Part shown: positions 9,515 through 61,638 of the stretch, piece after piece
How positions within the stretch are numbered: position 1 is the stretch's first letter
How the letters are laid out: each line of letters starts with the position of its first letter
IMG/VR virus record: IMGVR_UViG_3300045988_180913
Direction: 5' to 3' (one strand)
Origin: a virus
Length of the DNA: 64,000 bases
Notes under the pieces: model-generated
The model's input: the letters and a program-made list of their open reading frames with translations, nothing else
What the model was told of the DNA's origin: nothing
Database searches by the model: none
Position numbers and translations under genes: made by a program

Positions 9515-10783
9515 ATGAAATTCGATATATTCTCAAAAAAACAATTAATAGTTCTGACATGGTGGAATGAAAAAAGTAAGTTCAAAGATAAAAAGGGAAT
9601 AATATGTGACGGATCTATCAGAAGTGGCAAATCGTTAAGTATGTCCCTATCTTTTATCTTTTGGGCAATGAAAAATTTCACAGGACAGCAGTTTGGTATG
9701 TCAGGTAAAACAGTAGGAGGCTTTGAAAGAAACGTAATATTTTGGTTATTACCTATATTAAAATCAAGAGGCTATAAGGTAGAATATAAAGATAATACTT
9801 TAATAGTTAAAATAAGAGATAATAGTACAAATGAAATAAAGTTAAATTACTTTTATGTATTTGGTGGTAGAGATGAAAGATCTTTTTCAATAATACAAGG
9901 TATGACAGCAGCAGGTTGGTACTTTGATGAAGTAGCTTTACAACCAAAGTCATTTGTAAATCAAGCAATAGGTAGGTGCTCAGTGAAAGGAAATAAGTTA
10001 TGGTTTAACTGTAACCCTGATATGCCAAATCATTGGTTCAAAACTGACTTCATTGATAATAAGGATAAATTAAATATGTTACATCTCCATTTTACTATGG
10101 ACGATAATCCTTCATTAGATGAAGAGATAATAAATGACTATAAAAGTAGATTTACTGGTGTATTTTATTTAAGATATATTTTAGGTCTTTGGGCATTAGC
10201 AGAAGGTATCATTTATGATATGTATAATGAAGAAATAAATACATATGAGAAAATAGATGAAAATATTAAATTAAATAGTACAAGATATTTTGCAATAGAT
10301 TATGGAACAACAAATCCATTTGTGGTATTAGATATATTTGATACCTGGGAAATTGCATATCAAGAAAATGAAATATATTATGATAGTAAAAAAACAAAAA
10401 AGAGTTTACCTGATATTGAATATTTAAGTATGATAAAAGAATTAGAAAAAAAAGAAAATATACCAGTATCAAAAATAATCATAGATCCATCAGCAGAGAG
10501 TTTAAAGGTACTACTTAGAGATAATGGTTATATAGTAAAGGATGCAAATAATTCAGTATTGGAAGGAATTAAATGTACAGGGTCTGCTTTGTGGCAAGAG
10601 AGGTATAAAATAAATAAAAGAAACTGCAAAAATACTATAAAAGAAATTGGCGGATACGTATGGGATGAGAAAGCTATAAAAAGAGGGGAAGAAAAACCTA
10701 TTAAAATAGATGATCATGCAATGGATGCAATGAGATATTTTATCAATACTATAATGAGAAGTAGAATATTAGGTAGAATGTAG
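9515..10783 (+). CDS. terL: terminase large subunit (PBSX XtmB / Terminase_3-like)
   Basis: Walker A GSIRSGKS and Walker B GWYFDEVA. C-terminal nuclease region has IIDPSA and DDHAMDAMRY. Confidence 0.9.
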   Translation: MKFDIFSKKQLIVLTWWNEKSKFKDKKGIICDGSIRSGKSLSMSLSFIFWAMKNFTGQQFGMSGKTVGGFERNVIFWLLPILKSRGYKVEYKDNTLIVKIRDNSTNEIKLNYFYVFGGRDERSFSIIQGMTAAGWYFDEVALQPKSFVNQAIGRCSVKGNKLWFNCNPDMPNHWFKTDFIDNKDKLNMLHLHFTMDDNPSLDEEIINDYKSRFTGVFYLRYILGLWALAEGIIYDMYNEEINTYEKIDENIKLNSTRYFAIDYGTTNPFVVLDIFDTWEIAYQENEIYYDSKKTKKSLPDIEYLSMIKELEKKENIPVSKIIIDPSAESLKVLLRDNGYIVKDANNSVLEGIKCTGSALWQERYKINKRNCKNTIKEIGGYVWDEKAIKRGEEKPIKIDDHAMDAMRYFINTIMRSRILGRM

Positions 10784-28005: not shown

Positions 28006-28833
28006 ATGATATTATTAAATACAATAGCTGGTGATATTATTGGCTCAAAATATGAATTTAGCAATATTCATAGCAAAGAATTTGAATTATTTCAAGATGA
28101 TATGCATTATACTGATGATACAGTGTTAACTATTGCAACAATTGATGCATTGCTGGAAATAAATAAAAGATATACAGAAGAAAGTTATGAGTTTGAAAAA
28201 GATATAGATGAAAAGCTTATATCTATTTTTAAAGAAAAATATTATGAATATGGAAATAAATATAATAATATTAATTTAGCATATGGTGCAAACTTTTTAA
28301 AGTGGTTATCATTTCAATATAAAAAAGCATATCCATATAATAGTTTTGGAAATGGTTCAGCGATGAGAGTTTCACCAATTGCATGGTATTCAAAAACTTT
28401 AAAAGAAGCAAGGTTGTTAGCAAAATGTTCTGCTTTTGTAACACATAATCATACACTTGGTATAAAAGGTGCAGTTGATATTACTGAATCAATATTTAAA
28501 TTATTAAATTATAATGCAGATAAAGATGACATAATAAAGGAATGCAAATATATTGTTCCAAGTAATATTTCAAAAGTATTATTTGATGAAACTTGTGAAG
28601 GAACAATACCATATGCTTATAAATGTTTTGTTGACTCCGAATCAACTGAAGATGCTATAAGAAATGCTATAAGTTGTGGAGGGGATTCTGATACTTTAGG
28701 TATAATTACTGCTTCATTAGCTGAAGCATATTATCCAGAGGATGAAGAAATATCAAAAAATGTATTAAGATATTTGGAAAAAGAATTTATTTTAAAAATA
28801 AATGAGTTTAATAATGTTGTAGCGAAAAGGTGA
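28006..28833 (+). CDS. ADP-ribosylglycohydrolase (ARH/DraG family)
   Basis: AGDIIGSKYEF, HYTDDTVLTIA, FGNGSAMRVSPIAW and CGGDSDTLGIITASLAEAYY are the ARH family motifs. Confidence 0.85.
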   Translation: MILLNTIAGDIIGSKYEFSNIHSKEFELFQDDMHYTDDTVLTIATIDALLEINKRYTEESYEFEKDIDEKLISIFKEKYYEYGNKYNNINLAYGANFLKWLSFQYKKAYPYNSFGNGSAMRVSPIAWYSKTLKEARLLAKCSAFVTHNHTLGIKGAVDITESIFKLLNYNADKDDIIKECKYIVPSNISKVLFDETCEGTIPYAYKCFVDSESTEDAIRNAISCGGDSDTLGIITASLAEAYYPEDEEISKNVLRYLEKEFILKINEFNNVVAKR

Positions 28834-50215: not shown

Positions 50216-50665
50216 ATGAGATTATGGCATGTATATTTAATTAAAGTTTTGCCAATGAAACAGCTTGTTTCACAGTGGCGTGAGTGTTGTTGTATAGCTA
50301 AGAATATAGCAAACAAAGGTACACCAAATCATTTACTTGTAAATAAAGTATTAGAGTATCATTATAATAATTTTAATCACTATACAATGTTAGTGGTAAA
50401 TGAAATGAAAAATAGAGGGTATAAAGTAAGAGAAAATTCTATAAGTAATTTTATTGACAATCTTATTAGTGGAATTGATAAGTTTAATAATAGTAAGCCA
50501 ACAATGGTGTTATTTGAAGGTTGGCATAATGAAAGGTATTTAAAGCAGTGTTATTATAATTTGCAAGAAAAATATGATTGTGGAGGCATATCAAAAGAAG
50601 AGTGGATGAAGGTTTATAAATATGTGAATTTTGCTTTAGATTTAAGATTAGATGATGAAAAATAA
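50216..50665 (+). CDS. pyrimidine-dimer DNA glycosylase-like protein (DenV-related, TIGR02328-type)
   Basis: MRLWHVYLIKVLPMKQLVSQWRECCCIAKNI matches the MRLWH..Li..LP...L..QwRE signature. Confidence 0.65.
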   Translation: MRLWHVYLIKVLPMKQLVSQWRECCCIAKNIANKGTPNHLLVNKVLEYHYNNFNHYTMLVVNEMKNRGYKVRENSISNFIDNLISGIDKFNNSKPTMVLFEGWHNERYLKQCYYNLQEKYDCGGISKEEWMKVYKYVNFALDLRLDDEK

Positions 50666-52652: not shown

Positions 52653-53515
52653 TGGGCATTATCGACTCTATTAAAACAAGCGTAGCTAAGTCTGGAAGCA
52701 ATAAAGAAAAGATACTTTATGTAAGAAATGATAGTAAGGTGAGAGTAAGATTTTTGCAAGAATTTAGTGAAGGCTATCAATTTACTTTTCATGATTCATT
52801 TGAAAAAGGTGTAAATACAATATGCCAAGAGGAGCTTGGAAAAACTTGTCCATTATGTGGAGAAGAAAGTTTAAGAACAAGAATATTATATGCTTGGTCA
52901 ATATATAATTTTGATACAAAGAGGGTTGAAATAATGCTATTTGCAGTAAACAATTGCACCCCTGTCTCAAATCTTTTATCAATGTATGAAAATTATGGAA
53001 CAATTATGGATAGAGATTATGTTTTGTCAAAGTCAGGTAAGCAACAAAATACAACTTATTCAGTAATACCTATGGACAAGGAGAAGTTTAGGAATACAAA
53101 AGCAAAGCCATATACAAAGTCTGCAGTTCTTAAGATTTTGGATAAAGCTTTTGCATTACCTGATGAATATGCTAAAGATCAAGATTTTGATGATATTGAT
53201 GAAGAAGACTTTGATGAAGAAGAAGTAAAGAAAAGTAGAAAGAAAAAATTTAAGGAACTTGATGAAGATATGCCAGGTGTTGATGATAAAAAGAAGAAAA
53301 GTAAGACAAAGAAAAATTATATGACAATAGAAGATATGGAAGAGTTTTTAGATGAAAATGATGTTGACGAAGATGACTTTTTTGAATATCATGAAGTAGA
53401 TAGTTTTGAAGATTTTGGTAAAATAACAAAGAAAAAATTTATGTCATATTATAATGAGTACATTGAAGAAATGGAAAATGAATATGAAGAAGACTATGAT
53501 GAGGATGATGAATAG
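52652..53515 (+). CDS. single-stranded DNA-binding protein-like (gp32-style Zn cluster, acidic tail)
   Basis: CQEELGKTCPLCGEE cluster, an OB-like N-half, and a very acidic C-terminus ending EEDYDEDDE. Lies between primase and nucleotide genes. Confidence 0.5.
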   Translation: MGIIDSIKTSVAKSGSNKEKILYVRNDSKVRVRFLQEFSEGYQFTFHDSFEKGVNTICQEELGKTCPLCGEESLRTRILYAWSIYNFDTKRVEIMLFAVNNCTPVSNLLSMYENYGTIMDRDYVLSKSGKQQNTTYSVIPMDKEKFRNTKAKPYTKSAVLKILDKAFALPDEYAKDQDFDDIDEEDFDEEEVKKSRKKKFKELDEDMPGVDDKKKKSKTKKNYMTIEDMEEFLDENDVDEDDFFEYHEVDSFEDFGKITKKKFMSYYNEYIEEMENEYEEDYDEDDE

Positions 53516-53859
53516 TGAAAAGCCTTTATAAAAAACAAATTGAATTTCAAAACAATTTATTAAGAAATGAAAAATATGATATTGAAAATGTAGTACTTCC
53601 AGAAGATAATATATATCTTTTTAAATATCATATGCTTCAATTATTGTCTGAACTTGGTGAAGTTCTTGAATCTGACAAGAGGTGGAAAAATTATAGAAAT
53701 AAAAAGTTTGACTTTAAAGAGAAGAGAAATGAAATTGCAGATTGCTTTATAGTTCTTATGAATGTAGCAATGAGTTCAGGCATGACATATGAAGAAATAT
53801 ATAAAAGCATAGAAGAAAAGATAGATGAAAATTTTGAAAGGGTAAAGAATGAGGGGTAA
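53515..53859 (+). CDS. dimeric dUTPase-like / all-alpha dNTP pyrophosphatase
   Basis: GTG start coupled to the upstream TAG. QIEFQNNL...HMLQLLSELGEVLESDKRWKNYR...EIADCFIVLMNVA is like the dUTPase_2/MazG superfamily. Confidence 0.6.
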   Translation: MKSLYKKQIEFQNNLLRNEKYDIENVVLPEDNIYLFKYHMLQLLSELGEVLESDKRWKNYRNKKFDFKEKRNEIADCFIVLMNVAMSSGMTYEEIYKSIEEKIDENFERVKNEG

Positions 53860-53861
53860 AT

Positions 53862-54293
53862 ATGTTTATTATTTTTGAAGGTGCTGATAAGACAGGTAAA
53901 AGTACTTTAATAAAAAAATTAAATGAAGTTACTGATTATAAGCACTGGGTTTTAGACAGAGGAATTATTTCATCAATTGTATATAATGATATATACAAAA
54001 GAAAAAATGAAAAGATGTATTTTAAATATCTTGAAAAAATAAAAGAAATGAATCCTTTGATTATTTTTACATATTCAAGCATAGAAAACATAGAAGGTAG
54101 ACTAAATAACTCAAAAGAAGAATTACCAAATGTTCAAAGAGAGTATGGTCTTGAAGGAATACAATTTAAATTTTTAGACTATATTCAAAAAAGCGGTTTA
54201 AGATATGTAATTGTATCAACAAATGAAACAATAGAAGAAAATTTAGATTACATTTTAAAGGTTATAGAAGAGGAAGAGTTAAATGAAGAATAA
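53862..54293 (+). CDS. dNMP (thymidylate-kinase-like) kinase
   Basis: P-loop IIFEGADKTGKSTL, as in Tmk (I.FEG.D.sGKsT). Short, at 143 aa. Confidence 0.6.
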   Translation: MFIIFEGADKTGKSTLIKKLNEVTDYKHWVLDRGIISSIVYNDIYKRKNEKMYFKYLEKIKEMNPLIIFTYSSIENIEGRLNNSKEELPNVQREYGLEGIQFKFLDYIQKSGLRYVIVSTNETIEENLDYILKVIEEEELNEE

Positions 54294-55440
54294 AAATGAA
54301 AATCTTACATTTGTATTTGATGTAGATGATACTATATGTCATACAAGTAATAGAGAGTATAAGAATTCGGTTCCAGATGTAGAAGTCATTGAGAAAATAA
54401 ATAAATTATATGATTTAGGAAATAAAATAGTATTATACACTTCAAGAGGTATGGTATCTTGTGATGGTGATATAGAAAAAGCTATTGAAAAAAATGAAAG
54501 CATATTAAAAGAATGGCTTAAAGAAAATGATGTTAAATATAGTGAATTAATTTTTGGAAAGCCTATAGCAGATTTTTACATTGATGATAGATGCATGAAT
54601 GTGAAAGGATTTAAAGAATCAAAGTTTGAAGAGTTTAATACAGGTAAAAGTGGTAAAAAAGTATATAGGTTTGGTGAATATGTTTTAAAGTTTGCAGACT
54701 TTTATAAAAGAACAAGGATGAAAAATTTTGAAAAGTATAAACCTAATGATATAAGATCACCAAAGATAATATCAAGCTTAAATAATAAAATATATATAGA
54801 GTATGTTGATGGTAAACCTCTAATTGATCTGGTAGCCAATGGTAATTATGATTTGTTTTCAAAGTTATTTTTTAAGGATATAAATAAGTTAAAAAATAAA
54901 GATAATTTTACAATTGGAGTTGACATTGTAGATCTATTTCATAAATTAGATTTGAATGTAAATAATGATAAAGAAGAATACTATGGATTAAATGATGTTA
55001 AGCTTGTTGACAAAGCAAAAAGATTAATAAGATCAGTTTCAGGTACATTATACGAAAATAAGTCAATGTCCCATGGTGATATGATAATGAGCAACATATT
55101 ATATTCAAAAGATGGACTTATATATCTTGACTCAGAATTTAATATGTTTTGTAGTACCTACATAATGGATTTAGCAAAAATGTATATGTCATTTTTAGGT
55201 TACGAAAATATTTTTGGCATATCAGAAAAGAAGATTAGTAAGTCTTATATAAAAAGATATTATAAAGATGTAAAAGTTAGATATGGTAAAAAAGTAGCTT
55301 TTGCAATGGTAGCTTTAACATATCATTATATTGTAAGACTTATAAGATATAATAAAGATCAATTGCAAAATGTAAATAAATTGATTGCAATTCTGGAGGA
55401 ATATAATGGAAAACAAATTAAAGAGCTCCTTGGAAAATAA
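54283..55440 (+). CDS. bifunctional HAD-family phosphatase / APH-ChoK-fold kinase
   Basis: HAD motifs FVFDVDDTICHT (DxDxT), LYTSRG and GKPIADFYIDDR. Kinase motifs SHGDMIMSNILY (HGDxxxxN) and IYLDSEF. Confidence 0.7.
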   Translation: MKNKNENLTFVFDVDDTICHTSNREYKNSVPDVEVIEKINKLYDLGNKIVLYTSRGMVSCDGDIEKAIEKNESILKEWLKENDVKYSELIFGKPIADFYIDDRCMNVKGFKESKFEEFNTGKSGKKVYRFGEYVLKFADFYKRTRMKNFEKYKPNDIRSPKIISSLNNKIYIEYVDGKPLIDLVANGNYDLFSKLFFKDINKLKNKDNFTIGVDIVDLFHKLDLNVNNDKEEYYGLNDVKLVDKAKRLIRSVSGTLYENKSMSHGDMIMSNILYSKDGLIYLDSEFNMFCSTYIMDLAKMYMSFLGYENIFGISEKKISKSYIKRYYKDVKVRYGKKVAFAMVALTYHYIVRLIRYNKDQLQNVNKLIAILEEYNGKQIKELLGK

Positions 55441-55849
55441 AAAAGTAGGATTTACATCAGTTGTAGGTGACTTACTACATGCAGGACATGTTGTAATGTT
55501 AGATGAATGTAAAATGTATTGTGACTACTTATATGTAGGAATAATTATAGATCCAACAAAAGATAGGTCATTTAAGAATAAACCAATTCAATCTTCTTTT
55601 GAAAGATATTGTCAAGTAGTATCACATAGGTCAGTCGATGAAGTAATACCTCTTGATGGAGAAGATGACTTATTGTTAGCTTTAAAAACATTACCAATAA
55701 ACATGAGATTTGTAGGGGAAGATTACAAAGGAAAAGATTTCACCGGCAAAAAAGAATGTATTGATCTTGGTATTGATATCATTTACAATAAGAGAAAACA
55801 TGGGCTTAGTTCAAATGAGCTTAGAGAAAGGATTGAAGCAAATGCATAA
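55406..55849 (+). CDS. HxGH nucleotidyltransferase (cytidylyltransferase-like; TagD / RfaE-domain-II type)
   Basis: GGAGGAA RBS. GFTSVVGDLLHAGHVVML (HxGH), VDEVIPL, VGEDYKGKDFTGKKE and KHGLSSNELRERI (the RxxGxST-like end). Confidence 0.75.
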   Translation: MENKLKSSLENKKVGFTSVVGDLLHAGHVVMLDECKMYCDYLYVGIIIDPTKDRSFKNKPIQSSFERYCQVVSHRSVDEVIPLDGEDDLLLALKTLPINMRFVGEDYKGKDFTGKKECIDLGIDIIYNKRKHGLSSNELRERIEANA

Positions 55850-56819
55850 AAAAGTATTTGTTGGAAAAGCAGGTCAAAAATTAATTTTTGATAGAGATAG
55901 TAAAGAGGCAAAAAGAAACAATATGAATGGTGGGTTAGATGCATATTTGTTTTTTGATTTGTTATTCAAAAATTTTAGTGATGTAGAGTTTTATATGTTA
56001 GGTGATTGTGATAGTGGAATTAAAAAATATAGTAATGTAACGTATGTTGACACAATAGAAGCATTAAATGGTAATGAGTTTGATTGTGGTTTGATATTTG
56101 CAGGTGTTTATAATAAAGATGATAGATTATGTAAATATTTAACTAAGAAGAATAAAACAAAATGGTATATGTTTAGTACAGATCCAAGATGTTTAATGCA
56201 AAATGTACAACTTAATAAATATCCTGAAAAAATATATGCTTTGTCAAATAGTTGTGTTGTATACTTACAATCTTCTGAAAATGCAAAATTATTTAGAACA
56301 CATTATCTTCCTTTAGAGAGATTAATGATAATGAGTAATATAAAACCACCAAAAATAGATAAAGATCTTTCAGTGGTCATATCTACATCCAGTAGTGATA
56401 TATATGATAGGGAAAAGTATATCATAAATTATGTAAAAATAGCAACAAGTTTTTTTGGTGAAAACAAAGTACAGGTATATGGCAGGTTAAAAGAGGAAAA
56501 TATTAAAAAATTAGGTAAACAATATAAAGGTGTTTTAGATTATGATGAATTTATAAAAGTTTTTAGAAGAGCAAAATATACTTTATGTATGCCATCAAAT
56601 GAAGGGTGGGTAACATCAAAATATATAGAAGCTTTAAATAATGATGTTGTACCATTTTTTCATAAAGATTATGGTATAGAATTAATTAAAAATGTAAAAA
56701 ATATTGAATATGAAGAAGACTTTGAAAAATGTTTAAAAAGTATAAAAAATCAACTAAATTATGATGAAAATTATAAAGGTGAAGAAATAATAAAAGAAAT
56801 AGAAAAAATATTAAAATAA
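55842..56819 (+). CDS. GT-B-like transferase resembling T4 DNA beta-glucosyltransferase
   Basis: The ORF 55761 frame with ATG 55842 overlaps the upstream stop. KWYMFSTDPR is compared with T4 BGT KIYYLFTDIR, and WVTSKYIEALNNDVV with FITLRVWETMASDAV. T4 sequences are recalled from memory. Confidence 0.45.
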   Translation: MHKKVFVGKAGQKLIFDRDSKEAKRNNMNGGLDAYLFFDLLFKNFSDVEFYMLGDCDSGIKKYSNVTYVDTIEALNGNEFDCGLIFAGVYNKDDRLCKYLTKKNKTKWYMFSTDPRCLMQNVQLNKYPEKIYALSNSCVVYLQSSENAKLFRTHYLPLERLMIMSNIKPPKIDKDLSVVISTSSSDIYDREKYIINYVKIATSFFGENKVQVYGRLKEENIKKLGKQYKGVLDYDEFIKVFRRAKYTLCMPSNEGWVTSKYIEALNNDVVPFFHKDYGIELIKNVKNIEYEEDFEKCLKSIKNQLNYDENYKGEEIIKEIEKILK

Positions 56820-56831
56820 GGAGGAAAAAAT

Positions 56832-57773
56832 ATGTATATTGAAGTAAATAGTGTTGCTGAAATATATAAGACTTTAGGTAGAGAGCTATTGATGAATGGT
56901 GAAAAAGTCTATCCAAAAGGTATTGAAACAAAAGAAATATTAGCTCCAAAAATTAGATTATTAAATCCTAAAAATAATCTTGCATATAATGAAAGTAGAA
57001 AATTTAATCTAATTTATGCTTTAGTAGAAAGCTTAATGTTATTTAATGAAACAAAAGAAGTAAAATATTTTAGTAAATTTAATAATAATATTATAAATTA
57101 TTCTGACAATGGAAAATCTTTATATGGAGCATATGGTAAAAGAATAGCTCCAATGATAAAAAAAATTATAAACAAACTTAAAAATGATAAAGATTCAAGA
57201 CAAGCTGTATTATCAATATATAATAATGATTTTTATATAGATACAAAAGATGTACCATGTACATTAAGCATTCAATTTATAGTAAGAAATGAAAAGTTGA
57301 ATGCAATAACAACAATGAGAAGTAATGATATAATCTGGGGATTACCATATGATATATTTATGTTTACAAATTTACAACAAGTTATAGCAAATACTTTAAA
57401 TCTTAAATTAGGATGGTATGAGCATAATCCCACAAGTATGCATGTATATTCAAATCATTACAATATGCTTAAAGAAATGTCAAACACTTGTGAGCCAATT
57501 GAAACAAATAATGATTTAGATTATTCATCATTTAAGTATCAAGCATGTAAATATTTGTTGCCAATTGTATTTGATGATTTGGATAATGATACAAGTGAAA
57601 ATGAATTAGAAAATATATGTAAGATGTTATATGATAAGCAAGAACTTGAGTATCTTATATTGATAATGAAAGAGATAATGTATAGAAGAAAAAAATATGA
57701 CTCTATAATTTGGAATATAAAAACACCTGAATGGTCTAAAAAATTTACAAAGAGGTGGAAAGAAAATGCTTGA
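56832..57773 (+). CDS. thymidylate-synthase-family pyrimidine hydroxymethylase-like enzyme (Asp at base-specificity position)
   Basis: DSRQAVLSIY, catalytic VPCT, MRSNDIIWGLPYD and SMHVYSNHY parallel ThyA and T4 gp42. The residue after G-L-P-Y is D (as in gp42 D179), not N (ThyA N177). Confidence 0.7.
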   Translation: MYIEVNSVAEIYKTLGRELLMNGEKVYPKGIETKEILAPKIRLLNPKNNLAYNESRKFNLIYALVESLMLFNETKEVKYFSKFNNNIINYSDNGKSLYGAYGKRIAPMIKKIINKLKNDKDSRQAVLSIYNNDFYIDTKDVPCTLSIQFIVRNEKLNAITTMRSNDIIWGLPYDIFMFTNLQQVIANTLNLKLGWYEHNPTSMHVYSNHYNMLKEMSNTCEPIETNNDLDYSSFKYQACKYLLPIVFDDLDNDTSENELENICKMLYDKQELEYLILIMKEIMYRRKKYDSIIWNIKTPEWSKKFTKRWKENA

Positions 57774-60540
57774 TTTGCATAGGCATACAGAATTTAGTAC
57801 ATTTGATGGATTTGGTAAAACAAGTGAAGTTGCTAAATATGCAAAAGAAATAGGATATGATGCTCTTGGCATATCAGACCATGGCAATATGTCAGGTTTA
57901 GTTACTCATTATTTTTCGTGTAAAGAAAATGGTATAAAGCCAATAATGGGTTGTGAAGTTTATTTTATGCCAAAGTTTAAACAAACAAGAACATCATATC
58001 ATTTATGTTTATATGTAAAAAATTTAAAAGGGTATAGAGTTCTTAATGAATTGGTAACAAAAGCAAATTTTGATAATTTTTATTATAAAGCAATAATTGA
58101 CTTTGATATGCTTGAAAAAAATCATGAAGGATTGATTTGCACATCAGCTTGTATAGGTGGAGCTATTTCAACTTTAATTTCAAAAGGAAAAGATGATGTA
58201 GCATATAATGTTGCAAAAAGATTTAAAGATGTTTTTGGTGATGACTATTATATAGAGATTCAACCTTATAAGTTGACAGAAAAAGGGCTACAGGAAGCTG
58301 TAAATATTAAATTAATGCAGTTGGCAAAAAAATTAAAAATAAAATGTATATTGACATCAGATTCACATTATATAAATAAAGATGATTTTGATACATATTT
58401 AAAAATGCATGATATTGCAGGTCATAAAGATTTTGGTGCTCAATATGAAGAAAGATATATGCCAACAAAAAAAGAATTAATAAAAAGATTTGTGAAAATG
58501 CATGGTGATGATAGTGAATTATTTGCAGATGAAATAGAGGCAAAAAAATTTGCAAAGACATGCATAAAAAATCTCGATGAAATATCTTCAAAAGTAGATG
58601 ATGAAATTCTTGAAAAATTACCATTAGCTTTACCTGTTTTTAATGAAAATATAAATAGTACAAAATTATTAAAATTAAATATAATTAAAGGTTTAAAGAA
58701 AAGAGGAAAGTATAATAAACAATATCTTGATAGATGTAAAGAAGAATTTGAAGTAATAAAGTATCATGGTTTTGAAGATTATTTTTTAATGGTTCAAGAT
58801 TATGTGCAATATGCAAGAGACTCTGGTATTGAGGTTGGACCAGGAAGAGGGTCAGTTTGTAATAGTTTAGTTGCTTATGCTCTTGGCATTACAGATGTGG
58901 ATAGTATAATTTTTGATTTAGATTTTAGAAGATTTTTGAGAAAAGATAAGAAAAAATTTCCAGATATTGATATGGACTTTGAAACAAGCAGAAGAGGAGA
59001 GGTCATTGAATATCTTGTAAATAAGTATGAAAGTAAAGCAGCAAGAATATGTTCATATGGATTATACAAAGTAGATAATTTATTAAATGATTTATTCAAA
59101 ATTTGTGGATTAAAACTTGCTGATAAAGATGATCCTGAAAAAAGTGAAAAAGATAAAACAATTATATCGATTCAAAAAGCAATAAAGAATAAAGTAAAAG
59201 AATATATAGATGAAGAAACATCTTCATTTAATTATGATGAAGCTCAATATGATGAAGAAATAAAATATTATAACAACAAATATGATGATATTATAAAACA
59301 TTTTAGTAAGCTATATAAAAAAGTAAGATTCTTTGGTACTCATGCAGCTGGTGTTGCAATCTCAGGATCAAACATATTAAATTATACCTCAATAGTAAGA
59401 AGAGCAAAAGATATGTACACAACTACATATGATCTTGTTGATATTGAAAATATTAATGTAATTAAATTTGATATGCTTGGTCTTAGAACAATGAGTATTA
59501 TGAAAGAGTTAAGAGATATAACTGATAGTGATCATTATTTTAATTATGATTTGCTAAATGATGAAAAAATATATGAAGAATTTGGAAAAGCAAATACAGA
59601 TGGTATTTTTCAATTTGAAGCAAAAGGTGCAAAAAATATACTAAAAGAAATTGAATGTGATTGCTATCAAGATGTAATTGCCGCAAGTGCATTAAATAGA
59701 CCTGGTCCATTATCATTAGGTATGGTGGAAGAATATGCAAATGAAAAGAAAAATGTAAGAAATGGTATAAAAGAAAAAAATCATAAAGATAATATATTTT
59801 TTCAATATGCAGATGATACTTATGGTACATTCGTTTATCAAGAGCAGATCATGAAAGTATGCACTGAACTTGGTGGAATGACATGGGCTGAGGCTGATAA
59901 GGTAATGAAATTTTTAAAATCAGGCTCAGGCATGACAGAAAAAGCACTTGAAATAAAAATGCAAGAAGAAGAAAAGCTTACAAATAAATTTGTTGAAGGT
60001 GCAAGCAAAAAAGGAATAAAAGAAAAAGAAGCAAGAGAAATTTTTAATAAACTTTTAGTATATTCATTTAATAAAGGTCATGCTGTTGGATATGCATTGA
60101 TTTCAATAGAACAAATGTTTTACAAAATTTATTATAATACACAATTTTGGTATGTTACATTAAAGTATGCAAATGAAAAAGATGTACCAAGATTGAGTTC
60201 AAAAGCTGTAAAAGATGGTTGTGTTATTTTACTTCCTCATGTAAATGGAGCAGCATATCATAAGATAACAAAAATAGATGGAGATGTTTGCATAAGAGAA
60301 GGAACTTCCACAATAAAAAATGTCGGTTTAAAAGCTGCTCAATATATAGAAGAAGAAAGAAACAAAAATGGTAAATTTAAAGACTATGATGATTTTTATG
60401 ATAGAATGGAACCATATAGAAGAGTTGTAAACAAAAGAGTTTTAGAAGCATTAAAAGAAAGTGGAGCATTAGAGTTTGATAAAAAAATATATTTTGGTAG
60501 ATGTCAAAAATATAATAGTGCTCTATATGGTAGGGGGTAG
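57766..60540 (+). CDS. dnaE: DNA polymerase III alpha-like replicase (DnaE type, PHP domain)
   Basis: PHP motifs LDLHRHTEFSTFDG, ISDHGNM, GCEVY and TSDSHY. Palm motifs FPDIDMDF, HAAGVAI and KFDMLGLRT. 924 aa. Confidence 0.9.
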   Translation: MLDLHRHTEFSTFDGFGKTSEVAKYAKEIGYDALGISDHGNMSGLVTHYFSCKENGIKPIMGCEVYFMPKFKQTRTSYHLCLYVKNLKGYRVLNELVTKANFDNFYYKAIIDFDMLEKNHEGLICTSACIGGAISTLISKGKDDVAYNVAKRFKDVFGDDYYIEIQPYKLTEKGLQEAVNIKLMQLAKKLKIKCILTSDSHYINKDDFDTYLKMHDIAGHKDFGAQYEERYMPTKKELIKRFVKMHGDDSELFADEIEAKKFAKTCIKNLDEISSKVDDEILEKLPLALPVFNENINSTKLLKLNIIKGLKKRGKYNKQYLDRCKEEFEVIKYHGFEDYFLMVQDYVQYARDSGIEVGPGRGSVCNSLVAYALGITDVDSIIFDLDFRRFLRKDKKKFPDIDMDFETSRRGEVIEYLVNKYESKAARICSYGLYKVDNLLNDLFKICGLKLADKDDPEKSEKDKTIISIQKAIKNKVKEYIDEETSSFNYDEAQYDEEIKYYNNKYDDIIKHFSKLYKKVRFFGTHAAGVAISGSNILNYTSIVRRAKDMYTTTYDLVDIENINVIKFDMLGLRTMSIMKELRDITDSDHYFNYDLLNDEKIYEEFGKANTDGIFQFEAKGAKNILKEIECDCYQDVIAASALNRPGPLSLGMVEEYANEKKNVRNGIKEKNHKDNIFFQYADDTYGTFVYQEQIMKVCTELGGMTWAEADKVMKFLKSGSGMTEKALEIKMQEEEKLTNKFVEGASKKGIKEKEAREIFNKLLVYSFNKGHAVGYALISIEQMFYKIYYNTQFWYVTLKYANEKDVPRLSSKAVKDGCVILLPHVNGAAYHKITKIDGDVCIREGTSTIKNVGLKAAQYIEEERNKNGKFKDYDDFYDRMEPYRRVVNKRVLEALKESGALEFDKKIYFGRCQKYNSALYGRG

Positions 60541-60726: not shown

Positions 60727-61638
60727 ATGGAAGATAAAAAAAGACTTGAAATAATGAAATTATGTAAAAAGATAGAAGATAAAAATGGTGAAGGATCAAT
60801 CTATAGTTTAGGGTCAAAAAAAGCAAATATGAATATACCAAGAATTAGCACAAATATAGAAGACTTAGATTATATACTTGGTGGTGGAATTCCAAAAGGA
60901 AGAATTATGGAAATTTACGGCCCAGAATCAAGTGGTAAAACAAGTTTAGGTTTACATCTTTGTAGTTTATGTGACATGGCTTTATATGTTGCAGCTGAAG
61001 GTACATTTGATGCAAGTAGAGCAAAAGTATTTGGTAATAAGCCAAAACAACTATTAGTTTATAGGCCAAGATATGGTGAAGATGCTCTTGACAGAGTAAT
61101 GGAATTTACAAAAGTAGGAATCCCATTAATAGTTGTAGACTCTGTGCCGGCTTTAATGCCAAAAGAAGATTATGATAAAGTAGATAAGAGTCTTGAAAAT
61201 GAACATAGAATTGGCGGAGTAGCAAGACTTTTAAATAAAGCATTACCTGTACTTGAGAGAGAGGTTGAAAAATCAAACACAACAATAGTGTTTATTAATC
61301 AAATAAGAGATAAAATGAATGCATTAATGTTTGGTGAAAAAACTGATACACCTGGTGGAAAGGCATTAAAATTTTATTGCAGTGTTAGAGTTCAAGTAGG
61401 TAGAAGAGCTTGGATAGAAGTCCCAAATAAAGATCCAAGAAATAGTTCAGACAATCAAAAAATAGGTATTATTACAAAATGTAAAGTGCAAAAATCAAAA
61501 ATTTGTAATCCATTTGGTGAATGTGAAATACCAATGATTTTTGATAGAGGATATGTAAGTTATGATGATGTATTAACAATAAGAAAAGAAATAATGGCAG
61601 AGAATAGAAGGAAACAAAAAGAAAAGAAAGAAGGATAA
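60727..61638 (+). CDS. recA: RecA recombinase
   Basis: GGGIPKGRIMEIYGPESSGKTSLGLH, VVDSVPAL, IFINQIRDKM and DTPGGKALKFYCSVR. Confidence 0.9.
   Translation: MEDKKRLEIMKLCKKIEDKNGEGSIYSLGSKKANMNIPRISTNIEDLDYILGGGIPKGRIMEIYGPESSGKTSLGLHLCSLCDMALYVAAEGTFDASRAKVFGNKPKQLLVYRPRYGEDALDRVMEFTKVGIPLIVVDSVPALMPKEDYDKVDKSLENEHRIGGVARLLNKALPVLEREVEKSNTTIVFINQIRDKMNALMFGEKTDTPGGKALKFYCSVRVQVGRRAWIEVPNKDPRNSSDNQKIGIITKCKVQKSKICNPFGECEIPMIFDRGYVSYDDVLTIRKEIMAENRRKQKEKKEG

Follow-up and report, generated by a model that had tools for sequence, protein, structure and literature searches.

The closest described counterpart of the system reported here is the subclass III biosynthetic gene cluster of contig 53, which holds a bifunctional HAD-like/APH-like enzyme, a cytidylyltransferase and a GT-B DNA glycosyltransferase (Pyle, Lund, O'Toole and Saleh, bioRxiv 10.1101/2023.12.21.572611; Cell Rep 2024;43:114631). 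In E. coli, making Hep-5hmC (449 u) and di-Hep-5hmC (641 u) required all three genes of this trio, 5hmC being 5-hydroxymethylcytosine; the products were named 5-heptosyl- and 5-di-heptosyl-methylcytosine, and the supplement of the same paper lists 'HAD+CTPtransf+GT ... Heptose ... DiHeptose'. In their survey, ThyS was a commoner companion of GT-B DNA glycosyltransferases than TET-like enzymes were, and APH phosphotransferases were among the neighbours. Here we describe a locus of this kind in the IMG/VR virus record IMGVR_UViG_3300045988_180913, a stretch of 64,000 nucleotides that was analysed as a whole and is called the window below. The window is phage sequence with about 27% G+C and with essentially all genes on the plus strand, and its source is a low-GC gut phage. 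Six genes between positions 53515 and 57773, all reading in the same direction and with ends that mostly overlap or almost abut, very probably constitute a DNA-hypermodification operon within the phage replication module. We likewise regard it as highly likely that this operon lets the phage produce an activated sugar of its own and transfer it to 5hmC in DNA. The architecture of the trio and its function in DNA glycosylation are already known (Pyle et al. 2023-24), and the window is a further example.

A second point of comparison is the Afh pathway, which produces arabinosyl-5-hydroxycytosine in the T-even-like phages RB69 (gp45-55), DLP3 (gp76-83), HY126 and LC53 (PMC13326640 and references therein). 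In these phages an arabinose-5-phosphate isomerase supplies arabinose 5-phosphate (Ara5P), the C-terminal APH-like kinase of AfhE (RB69 gp52:53) converts it to Ara-1,5-P2, the HAD phosphatase AfhF (RB69 gp51) takes one phosphate off to leave Ara1P, and the N-terminal MurU-like domain of AfhE then yields UDP-arabinose, after which GT-B enzymes arabinosylate the DNA (PMC13326640 and work cited there). The 5hmC system of T4, with the dCMP hydroxymethylase gp42, gp1, gp56 and the alpha- and beta-glucosyltransferases, draws on host UDP-glucose, whereas the window phage encodes its own donor synthesis. The classical heptose pathway leads from a sugar phosphate through the 1,7-bisphosphate and the 1-phosphate to the nucleoside-diphosphate (NDP) sugar. 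The ADP-heptose version of it (GmhA, HldE or HldA plus HldC, and GmhB) resembles the window genes in the order of steps, in having a HAD-IIIA phosphatase and in having an HxGH nucleotidyltransferase (NT), and differs from them in its kinase, which has the PfkB fold, and in the destination of its product, which in the window would be DNA.

The donor branch of the operon begins with a single protein in which a HAD phosphatase is fused to a kinase (Table 1). A first-pass annotation of the window, made from its letters and translated open reading frames (ORFs), had described this gene as a complete HAD core joined to an APH/ChoK-type kinase core, and the description holds: all of the ORFs and every motif that it quoted were found in place, including DVDDT, TSRG and GKP...IDDR in the HAD half and HGDMIMSN and LDSEF in the kinase half. 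The catalytic residues are invariant in 42 homologues (D13, D15, T53, K93, D101 and D102 in the HAD half; G121, S123, K136, H264, D266, N271 and D283 in the kinase half), and thus both halves look active. The HAD half matched phrog_1238 (1.4e-27) and the 'capsule biosynthesis phosphatase' family TIGR01689 (1.5e-18), and among PDB sequences 9iqw (4.5e-18) and 1xpj (6.6e-16), and it is 41% identical to the AfhF-like phosphatase of LC53 (E 4e-20). The entry 9iqw shares its deposition series with 9iqu (a thymidylate-synthase (TS) homologue) and 9iqz ('phage HY126 glycosyltransferase'), and on this basis it is probably AfhF of HY126. Scanned by itself, the kinase half, comprising the C-terminal 260 residues, matched Pfam weakly (RIO1, 1.2e-3), and its pairwise BLAST match to AfhE was marginal (E 0.19). 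An AlphaFold2 model of the fusion built from the 42 homologues reached a predicted local distance difference test score (pLDDT) of 90 and a predicted template-modelling score (pTM) of 0.86, and Foldseek searches with it returned APH, macrolide, choline and ethanolamine kinases with probability 1.0 and E of about 1e-8. Profile-profile comparison by hhalign aligned the kinase half with AfhE-type kinase domains at 97.9% probability (E 5e-13), and the two have the motifs HGDxxxSN, IDPR and YDxAK...GY in common. Judged by these homologies, the fusion is the AfhF and AfhE-kinase pair in one chain, with the MurU-type NT replaced by a non-homologous HxGH enzyme. The kinase of the Afh phages shares a chain with the MurU-type NT, while that of the window shares one with the HAD phosphatase, and the window NT belongs to the unrelated HxGH superfamily; neither a PF00483 domain nor any match to the NT domain of LC53 AfhE was found in searches of the window. 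The window kinase, of the APH fold, is neither of the PfkB nor of the GHMP type. HAD-kinase fusions formed about 70 clusters in a large protein collection, all metagenomic, and a search with the HAD domain returned 392 phage records, mostly T-even-like, where it is a separate small protein beside an 'NTP transferase'; these are the phages with arabinosyl-5-hydroxycytosine.

The second gene of the trio encodes the HxGH NT. Its mechanically called ORF begins at TTG 55385, and since GGAGG sits just 5' of ATG 55406 the latter is the likely start; from there the protein has the 147 residues that the first reading had given, and its gene overlaps that of the fusion by 35 nucleotides. Upstream, the fusion start codon ATG 54283 overlaps the stop codon of the thymidylate-kinase-like (Tmk-like) gene, and downstream the ATG 55842 of the glycosyltransferase (GT) gene lies within ATGCATAA and overlaps the NT stop codon. 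From these overlaps, the genes look translationally coupled. The NT matched Pfam CTP_transf_like (1.9e-9) and phrog_7878 (3.5e-24), carries the motifs LHAGH and VGEDYKGK, and has a segment, RKHGLSS, that aligns with RTEGIST of TagD. Among NCBIfam models rfaE_dom_II was best (2.8e-15) and TagD second (4.2e-12), both under their equivalog cut-offs, which agrees with the earlier placement of the enzyme nearest to RfaE domain II and TagD; across the NT family HldE domain II was always the best match, from 2.8e-15 in the window to 4.8e-23 in relatives.

The best PDB sequence match of the NT, in turn, was TagD itself (1coz, 5.1e-9), and together with its second place in NCBIfam this lends some weight to a different reading, that the NT makes a CDP-alcohol (CDP-glycerol, CDP-ribitol or CDP-choline, by TagD or LicA/LicC logic) from which a phospho-alcohol is transferred to DNA. 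The kinase fold is indeed common to choline and ethanolamine kinases, and some relatives carry precomputed Choline_kinase Pfam matches. This reading is hard to reconcile, however, with the specific homology of the kinase to the AfhE sugar-phosphate kinase, and a pathway that started from an alcohol phosphate would leave the HAD phosphatase with no role. Moreover, the neighbouring transferase is homologous to T4 beta-glucosyltransferase (beta-GT), a sugar transferase, and not to phosphotransferases of the TagF or LicD type, one related locus (L017, see below) adds an NDP-sugar epimerase/dehydratase, and the products of contig 53 are sugars. We consider the CDP-alcohol reading very improbable. 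Of the two options that the first-pass annotation had offered, NDP-heptose logic gains from the rfaE_dom_II match and from the heptosyl-5hmC made by the same architecture (Pyle et al.), whereas the LicA/LicC and TagD option is the weaker one.

The third gene of the trio had at first no recognizable family: scans of its 352-residue mechanical ORF against Pfam, PHROG and NCBIfam gave no match, a 7-sequence profile found nothing among PDB sequences, and direct BLAST comparisons with the LC53 arabinosyltransferase and with a TET-associated glycosyltransferase (TAGT) protein showed no similarity. The same ORF was, from residue 34 on, 32% identical (E 8e-40) to gene 6 of the Agathobaculum phage AB434P2, which occupies the same position. 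A deep profile search gathered 291 relatives, and 31 of 61 sampled ones matched Pfam Glyco_trans_1_2. When the profile of this 61-sequence family was compared with all PDB sequences, T4 DNA beta-GT was the sole significant protein (1.4e-8), and hhalign aligned the family with beta-GT nearly end to end over 288 columns with 96.4% probability (E 1.4e-9). The conserved residues R190, K260 and E263 of the family fall on R191, R269 and E272 of beta-GT, residues with a role in UDP binding. In both hhalign and HMMER alignments the invariant TDPR of the family was not aligned with the FTDIR segment of beta-GT that holds the catalytic Asp100; by eye, KWYMFSTDPRCL and KIYYLFTDIRLP can be matched, and we treat this as a lead only. 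On the strength of the profile comparisons, this apparent orphan is a relative of beta-GT. The flanks described by the first reading, a Tmk-like kinase upstream and a T4 beta-glucosyltransferase-like gene downstream, are thus borne out by profile searches and by hhalign. There is no detectable similarity between the window GT and the GTs of the Afh phages.

Having identified a putative DNA glycosyltransferase, we turn to its acceptor, on which the TS homologue at the end of the operon bears. This protein matched Pfam Thymidylat_synt (9.7e-26), and its best PDB match was the CMP 5-hydroxymethylase MilA (5b6d, 3.4e-22). In E. coli ThyA numbering, N177D denotes a dCMP substrate and L143D/E a non-methyl product, and 5-hydroxy-dCMP synthases are recognized by D169N (Lee et al., PMC13326640). 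As controls, the enzymes of RB69 and LC53, which make 5-hydroxy-dCMP, showed L143E, D169N and N177D, in agreement with that publication. The window homologue and every homologue in the related loci carry L143D, C146, D169 and N177D, and therefore we predict a dCMP hydroxymethylase and hence 5hmC in the DNA, and not the 5-hydroxycytosine that goes with D169N in the Afh phages. L143D and N177D are also common to the T4 system. Scans of the window revealed neither a DNA_methylase nor a Tet_JBP domain, and here lies a clear difference from contig 53, where 5hmC arises after replication through a C5-methyltransferase and a TET-like (5mYOX/TET) dioxygenase. With a TS-type route, a nucleotide kinase and an NTP pyrophosphatase, the window phage probably makes 5hmC before replication and replaces cytosine completely.

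The two genes at the upstream end of the operon could fit such a route. The pyrophosphatase matched Pfam dUTPase_2 above the gathering score (3.8e-6) and phrog_173, an NTP pyrophosphohydrolase family, and its position is kept in the related loci L001, L008, L009, L017, L018 and L024. The Tmk-like kinase matched Pfam Thymidylate_kin above the gathering score (3.9e-7), phrog_761 and TIGR00041 (3.7e-8), is kept in L008, L009, L017 and L024, and has counterparts in the equivalent place of the RB69, DLP3 and LC53 clusters. Neither protein had a significant match among PDB sequences. By analogy, the pyrophosphatase would work like a dCTPase/dUTPase, providing dCMP and preventing dC from entering the DNA, and the kinase would act on 5hm-dCMP.

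Table 1. Genes of the putative DNA-hypermodification operon, with positions in the window.
Feature	Position	Strand	Length (residues)	Family or domains
All-alpha NTP pyrophosphatase, dimeric-dUTPase/MazG type	53515..53859	+	114	dUTPase_2
Thymidylate-kinase-like P-loop nucleotide kinase	53862..54293	+	143	Thymidylate_kin
HAD phosphatase-APH/choline-kinase-fold kinase fusion	54283..55440	+	385	HAD ~aa 1-125, kinase ~aa 126-385
HxGH (cytidylyltransferase-like) sugar-1-phosphate nucleotidyltransferase	55406..55849	+	147	CTP_transf_like
GT-B DNA glycosyltransferase related to T4 beta-glucosyltransferase	55842..56819	+	325	family profile
Thymidylate-synthase homologue with (d)CMP hydroxymethylase signature	56832..57773	+	313	Thymidylat_synt

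The linkage of these genes was examined in 80 IMG/VR loci and four contigs from an assembly collection (L numbers denote individual loci), of which the 42 with a fusion of 300-480 residues were counted; many of the 42 are near-duplicates, so that the count overstates their independence, and identity to the window fusion ranges from 28 to 98%. The HxGH NT was present in 41 of the 42, the sole locus without it (L029) being cut by the contig end, and in 39 it stood immediately downstream and overlapping. About 186,000 species-representative genomes held only five full-length fusions, all on contigs of metagenome-assembled genomes (MAGs) and all in one of the two contexts described below. In all 41 informative viral loci and in the 5 genome loci the pair lies on a phage contig beside a glycosyltransferase, mostly of a DNA-modifying type. 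This near-perfect linkage, and the three different ways in which the activities are fused (HAD-kinase, HAD-NT and NT-HAD-kinase), accord with the earlier proposal of a self-contained pathway for an activated donor.

The same loci bear on whether the product is destined for DNA at all. It may be argued that the three genes are unrelated to DNA and serve the envelope or capsule as an auxiliary set, changing the surface glycans of the host, for example to exclude superinfecting phages: the HAD family bears the name 'capsule biosynthesis phosphatase' (TIGR01689), PHROG labels point to lipopolysaccharide (LPS) heptose enzymes, and Pyle et al. speculate on effects on the LPS sugar pool. The window genes, however, sit inside a replication module, overlap a Tmk-like kinase and are followed by the beta-GT homologue and the dCMP-hydroxymethylase-type TS, and none of the 41 viral and 5 genome loci that carry the pair is a polysaccharide or envelope locus. 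We find the envelope reading extremely improbable. The first-pass annotation had suggested that the product goes to DNA and not to the envelope, and had named as evidence to the contrary homologues that would turn out to act on the envelope or on teichoic acid and to have no link with DNA-modification genes; across the loci the relatives instead stand beside glycosyltransferases, of the DNA type in nearly all (GT2 in L012), and further genes for DNA modification are usually present as well.

Loci that share the gene order of the window, which we call type A, run from an NTP pyrophosphatase through, usually, a Tmk-like kinase to the fusion, the NT, the beta-GT-like GT and the TS homologue; they comprise the window, L001, L008, L009, L017, L018 and L024, and among the loci analysed the beta-GT-like family is restricted to them. 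L001 (28-5582) represents the cultured Agathobaculum butyriciproducens phages AB434P2 and AB434P3 (OP172633, OP172634), which carry the same module; in their records its genes are listed as hypothetical, and the TS homologue, labelled a deoxyuridylate hydroxymethyltransferase, nevertheless has N177D, which points to dCMP as the substrate. In L017 an NAD-dependent sugar epimerase/dehydratase (9536-10579; Pfam Epimerase, 4.3e-52) lies between the NT and the beta-GT-like gene, which suggests that the NDP-sugar is further tailored in some phages; as a clue to the sugar this enzyme was set aside, since NCBIfam could not separate dTDP-glucose dehydratase, GalE, LegB and heptose epimerase.

In a second context, type B, found in about 35 loci, the fusion and the NT are accompanied by ParB_N, by one or two TAGT genes and by a conserved radical-SAM protein of 415-460 residues from the PA0069/Rv2578c family. 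Examples are L004 (9430-13510), L005 (10001-14830) and L006 (8535-13518), and further ones are L010, L019-L022, L025, L027, L028, L030-L046, L048, L061, L088, L089, L091 and L092. In L004-L006, for which Pfam data were at hand, no TS homologue and no TET/JBP domain lay within 10 kb, and the radical-SAM enzyme and ParB are candidates for making the acceptor hydroxyl on the base. Other settings are rarer: in L023 (5656-10120) and L026 (6428-12163) the cassette stands with a 473-residue T4 DNA alpha-glucosyltransferase-like protein (PF11440) and a TS homologue, with a C5 cytosine methyltransferase directly after the GT in L026, and in L012 two GT2 genes stand beside it.

The domain arrangements vary as well. 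HAD-NT fusions form single ORFs of about 240 residues (236-260; L047, L049, L052-L054 and L083), and in L013-L016 the HAD and kinase parts are apparently separate genes. About 20 metagenomic proteins of some 630 residues combine an NTP_transferase (PF00483), a HAD and an AfhE-type kinase in that order, and by this domain order they bridge the Afh and window architectures. They include L007 (10001-11890), L076 (on a contig named GVMAG), L079, L080, L082, L084, L086 and L087, as well as P0071-P0091; L007 also carries TFIIS, RNA polymerase Rpb5, Hint and RING domains, and judging from this gene content at least some of the proteins lie on giant-virus contigs (nucleocytoplasmic large DNA virus (NCLDV)-like). 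Finally, L093 (5586-10497) has a full set of the RB69/LC53 kind, with an arabinose-5-phosphate isomerase, AfhE-like and AfhF-like proteins, a TS homologue, a GT and a Tmk-like kinase, on a 120-kb contig binned to a MAG of Candidatus Izemoplasma, a wall-less relative of the Bacilli; this may be a mis-binned phage contig, or the pathway may occur outside phages of Proteobacteria.

Taken with the described systems, these data suggest how the operon would work. In the base branch, modelled on T4, the NTP pyrophosphatase would yield dCMP, the TS homologue would turn it into 5-hydroxymethyl-dCMP, the Tmk-like kinase together with host NDP kinase would carry it on to 5hm-dCTP, and the phage replicase would incorporate this nucleotide to give 5hmC-bearing DNA, so that the Tmk-like kinase and the pyrophosphatase would take the roles of T4 gp1 and gp56. 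In the sugar branch, the APH-fold half of the fusion would phosphorylate the anomeric position (C1) of a host sugar phosphate to a sugar 1,x-bisphosphate, the HAD half would take off the distal phosphate, and the HxGH NT would join the sugar 1-phosphate with an NTP into a phage-specific NDP-sugar. As the last step, the beta-GT-like GT-B enzyme would move the sugar onto the hydroxyl of 5hmC in the DNA, and the likely benefit would be a genome shielded from restriction and other nucleases. Whereas the identity of the domains, their homologies, the conservation of catalytic residues and the linkage of the genes were computed here, the order of these steps is taken from the biochemistry of AfhE and AfhF (PMC13326640) and from the classical heptose pathway.

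Each of the known systems shares part of this scheme. With contig 53 the window has in common the three-gene architecture, the 5hmC acceptor, a GT-B enzyme of T4 beta-GT-like architecture and the labels TIGR01689 for the HAD-APH protein and CTP_transf_like/TIGR02199 for the NT; the window, from a low-GC gut phage, has no sugar-phosphate isomerase. With the Afh clusters it shares the homologous HAD phosphatase and APH-fold kinase, the presence of a TS homologue and a Tmk-like kinase, and the logic of kinase, phosphatase and nucleotidyltransferase followed by a GT-B DNA glycosyltransferase. T4 is similar in its GT, homologous at the profile level, and in the location of the genes within a nucleotide and replication module, and differs in that its nucleotide kinase is gp1-like and not Tmk-like, and in that the window phage has a putative PolIII-alpha polymerase and a low-GC host.

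The identity of the sugar is less firm than the general mechanism. A heptose is the leading candidate, because the sole tested example of the architecture, contig 53, gave heptose and because HldE domain II is always the best match of the NT family; we hold this specific assignment tentatively, as a close call. Several points weigh against the scheme or against its extension to a heptose. The modification is predicted here from genes, from which we infer substrate, nucleotide, acceptor and order of reactions. The rfaE_dom_II score of the NT is 56.4 bits against an equivalog cut-off of 181.5, with TagD near behind; the AlphaFold2 model of the GT is poor (pLDDT 65), and Foldseek returned with it weak GT-B matches to MurG, BshA and the phage HY126 GT 9iqz; and the roles given to the pyrophosphatase and to the Tmk-like kinase are drawn from position and from family matches that are weak. 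Equivalence to contig 53 rests on architecture and shared family labels, and GT53, of 429 residues, is classed as GT4/BshA-like, as against 325 residues in the window GT. In addition, no SIS (isomerase) domain was present in the module genes or in 49 further plus-strand ORFs of at least about 135 residues, and a phmmer search of the window with the LC53 isomerase gave no match; neither GmhA nor any other sugar gene was found in the window. Without a GmhA- or KdsD-type isomerase to make heptose 7-phosphate or arabinose 5-phosphate, the precursor must be derived from the host.

This last point would also suit the same pathway and the same DNA target with another sugar, which could be a hexose or one of the pentoses: arabinose, the sugar of RB69 and HY126, or else ribose or xylose, made directly from a pentose 5-phosphate. 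A missing isomerase would be expected for a substrate that is abundant in any host, such as ribose 5-phosphate or hexose 6-phosphate; arabinose phosphates are the substrates of AfhF and of the AfhE kinase, to which the two halves of the fusion are homologous; and the heptose assignment comes from another contig (53), in E. coli, by masses alone. On the other hand, the tested architecture did give heptose in E. coli, which contains arabinose 5-phosphate too, and the NT is not of the MurU type used in the arabinose pathway but lies nearest to the heptose-1-phosphate adenylyltransferase family. Furthermore, RB69, LC53 and L093 each encode the arabinose-5-phosphate isomerase that the window lacks, the window TS homologue is without D169N, and the window GT shows no similarity to the LC53 arabinosyltransferase. 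A pentose or hexose is accordingly an unlikely identity for the sugar. A partly different possibility, that the donor is neither heptose nor arabinose and is built from a central-metabolism phosphate that needs no isomerase (for example ribose 5-phosphate or hexose 6-phosphate) or carries an unusual nucleotide (such as CDP), strikes us as slightly less unlikely and still improbable.

Several further genes of the window were noted in passing. An ADP-ribosylglycohydrolase family protein (28006-28833; PF03747, 5.7e-26) lies amid the virion structural region. The replication module holds a DenV-like pyrimidine-dimer DNA glycosylase (50216-50665; PF03013, 3.1e-18), a putative replicative DNA polymerase of 924 residues (57766-60540), PolIII alpha-like by reading of its translation alone, and a RecA homologue (60727-61638; 3.5e-57). 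Proteins with NUDIX and RNase H domains were seen within 22 ORFs spanning 1-11.7 kb and 42.7-62.7 kb.

In summary, the window adds a pre-replicative, TS-driven case to a cassette that had been demonstrated only alongside a methyltransferase and TET, and places that cassette in phages of human-gut anaerobes. What is added here is the near-perfect linkage of fusion and NT and the recognition of the orphan gene as a beta-GT relative; phosphatase and kinase homology link the heptose-type cassette to the Afh arabinose pathway, with the NT swapped for a non-homologous one, and a single donor cassette is seen to partner with glycosyltransferases of four families (beta-GT-like, alpha-GT-like, TAGT and GT2). 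Literature searches returned neither a follow-up in which the NDP-heptose is identified nor a study of the DNA of Agathobaculum phages, and the cultured phages AB434P2 and AB434P3, which have the same module, make the native modification directly measurable. DNA modifications govern how phage DNA responds to restriction enzymes, CRISPR and sequencing chemistry, and are therefore relevant to gut virome work and phage engineering. If the donor were neither a heptose nor arabinose, a group of gut Clostridia phages would carry a hitherto unseen glycan on 5hmC in DNA in which cytosine is fully replaced. The HAD-kinase fusion and the HxGH NT would constitute a portable donor cassette that serves no fewer than four unrelated families of glycosyltransferases, of which three are known to modify DNA, with the ParB, TAGT and radical-SAM clusters among its contexts.

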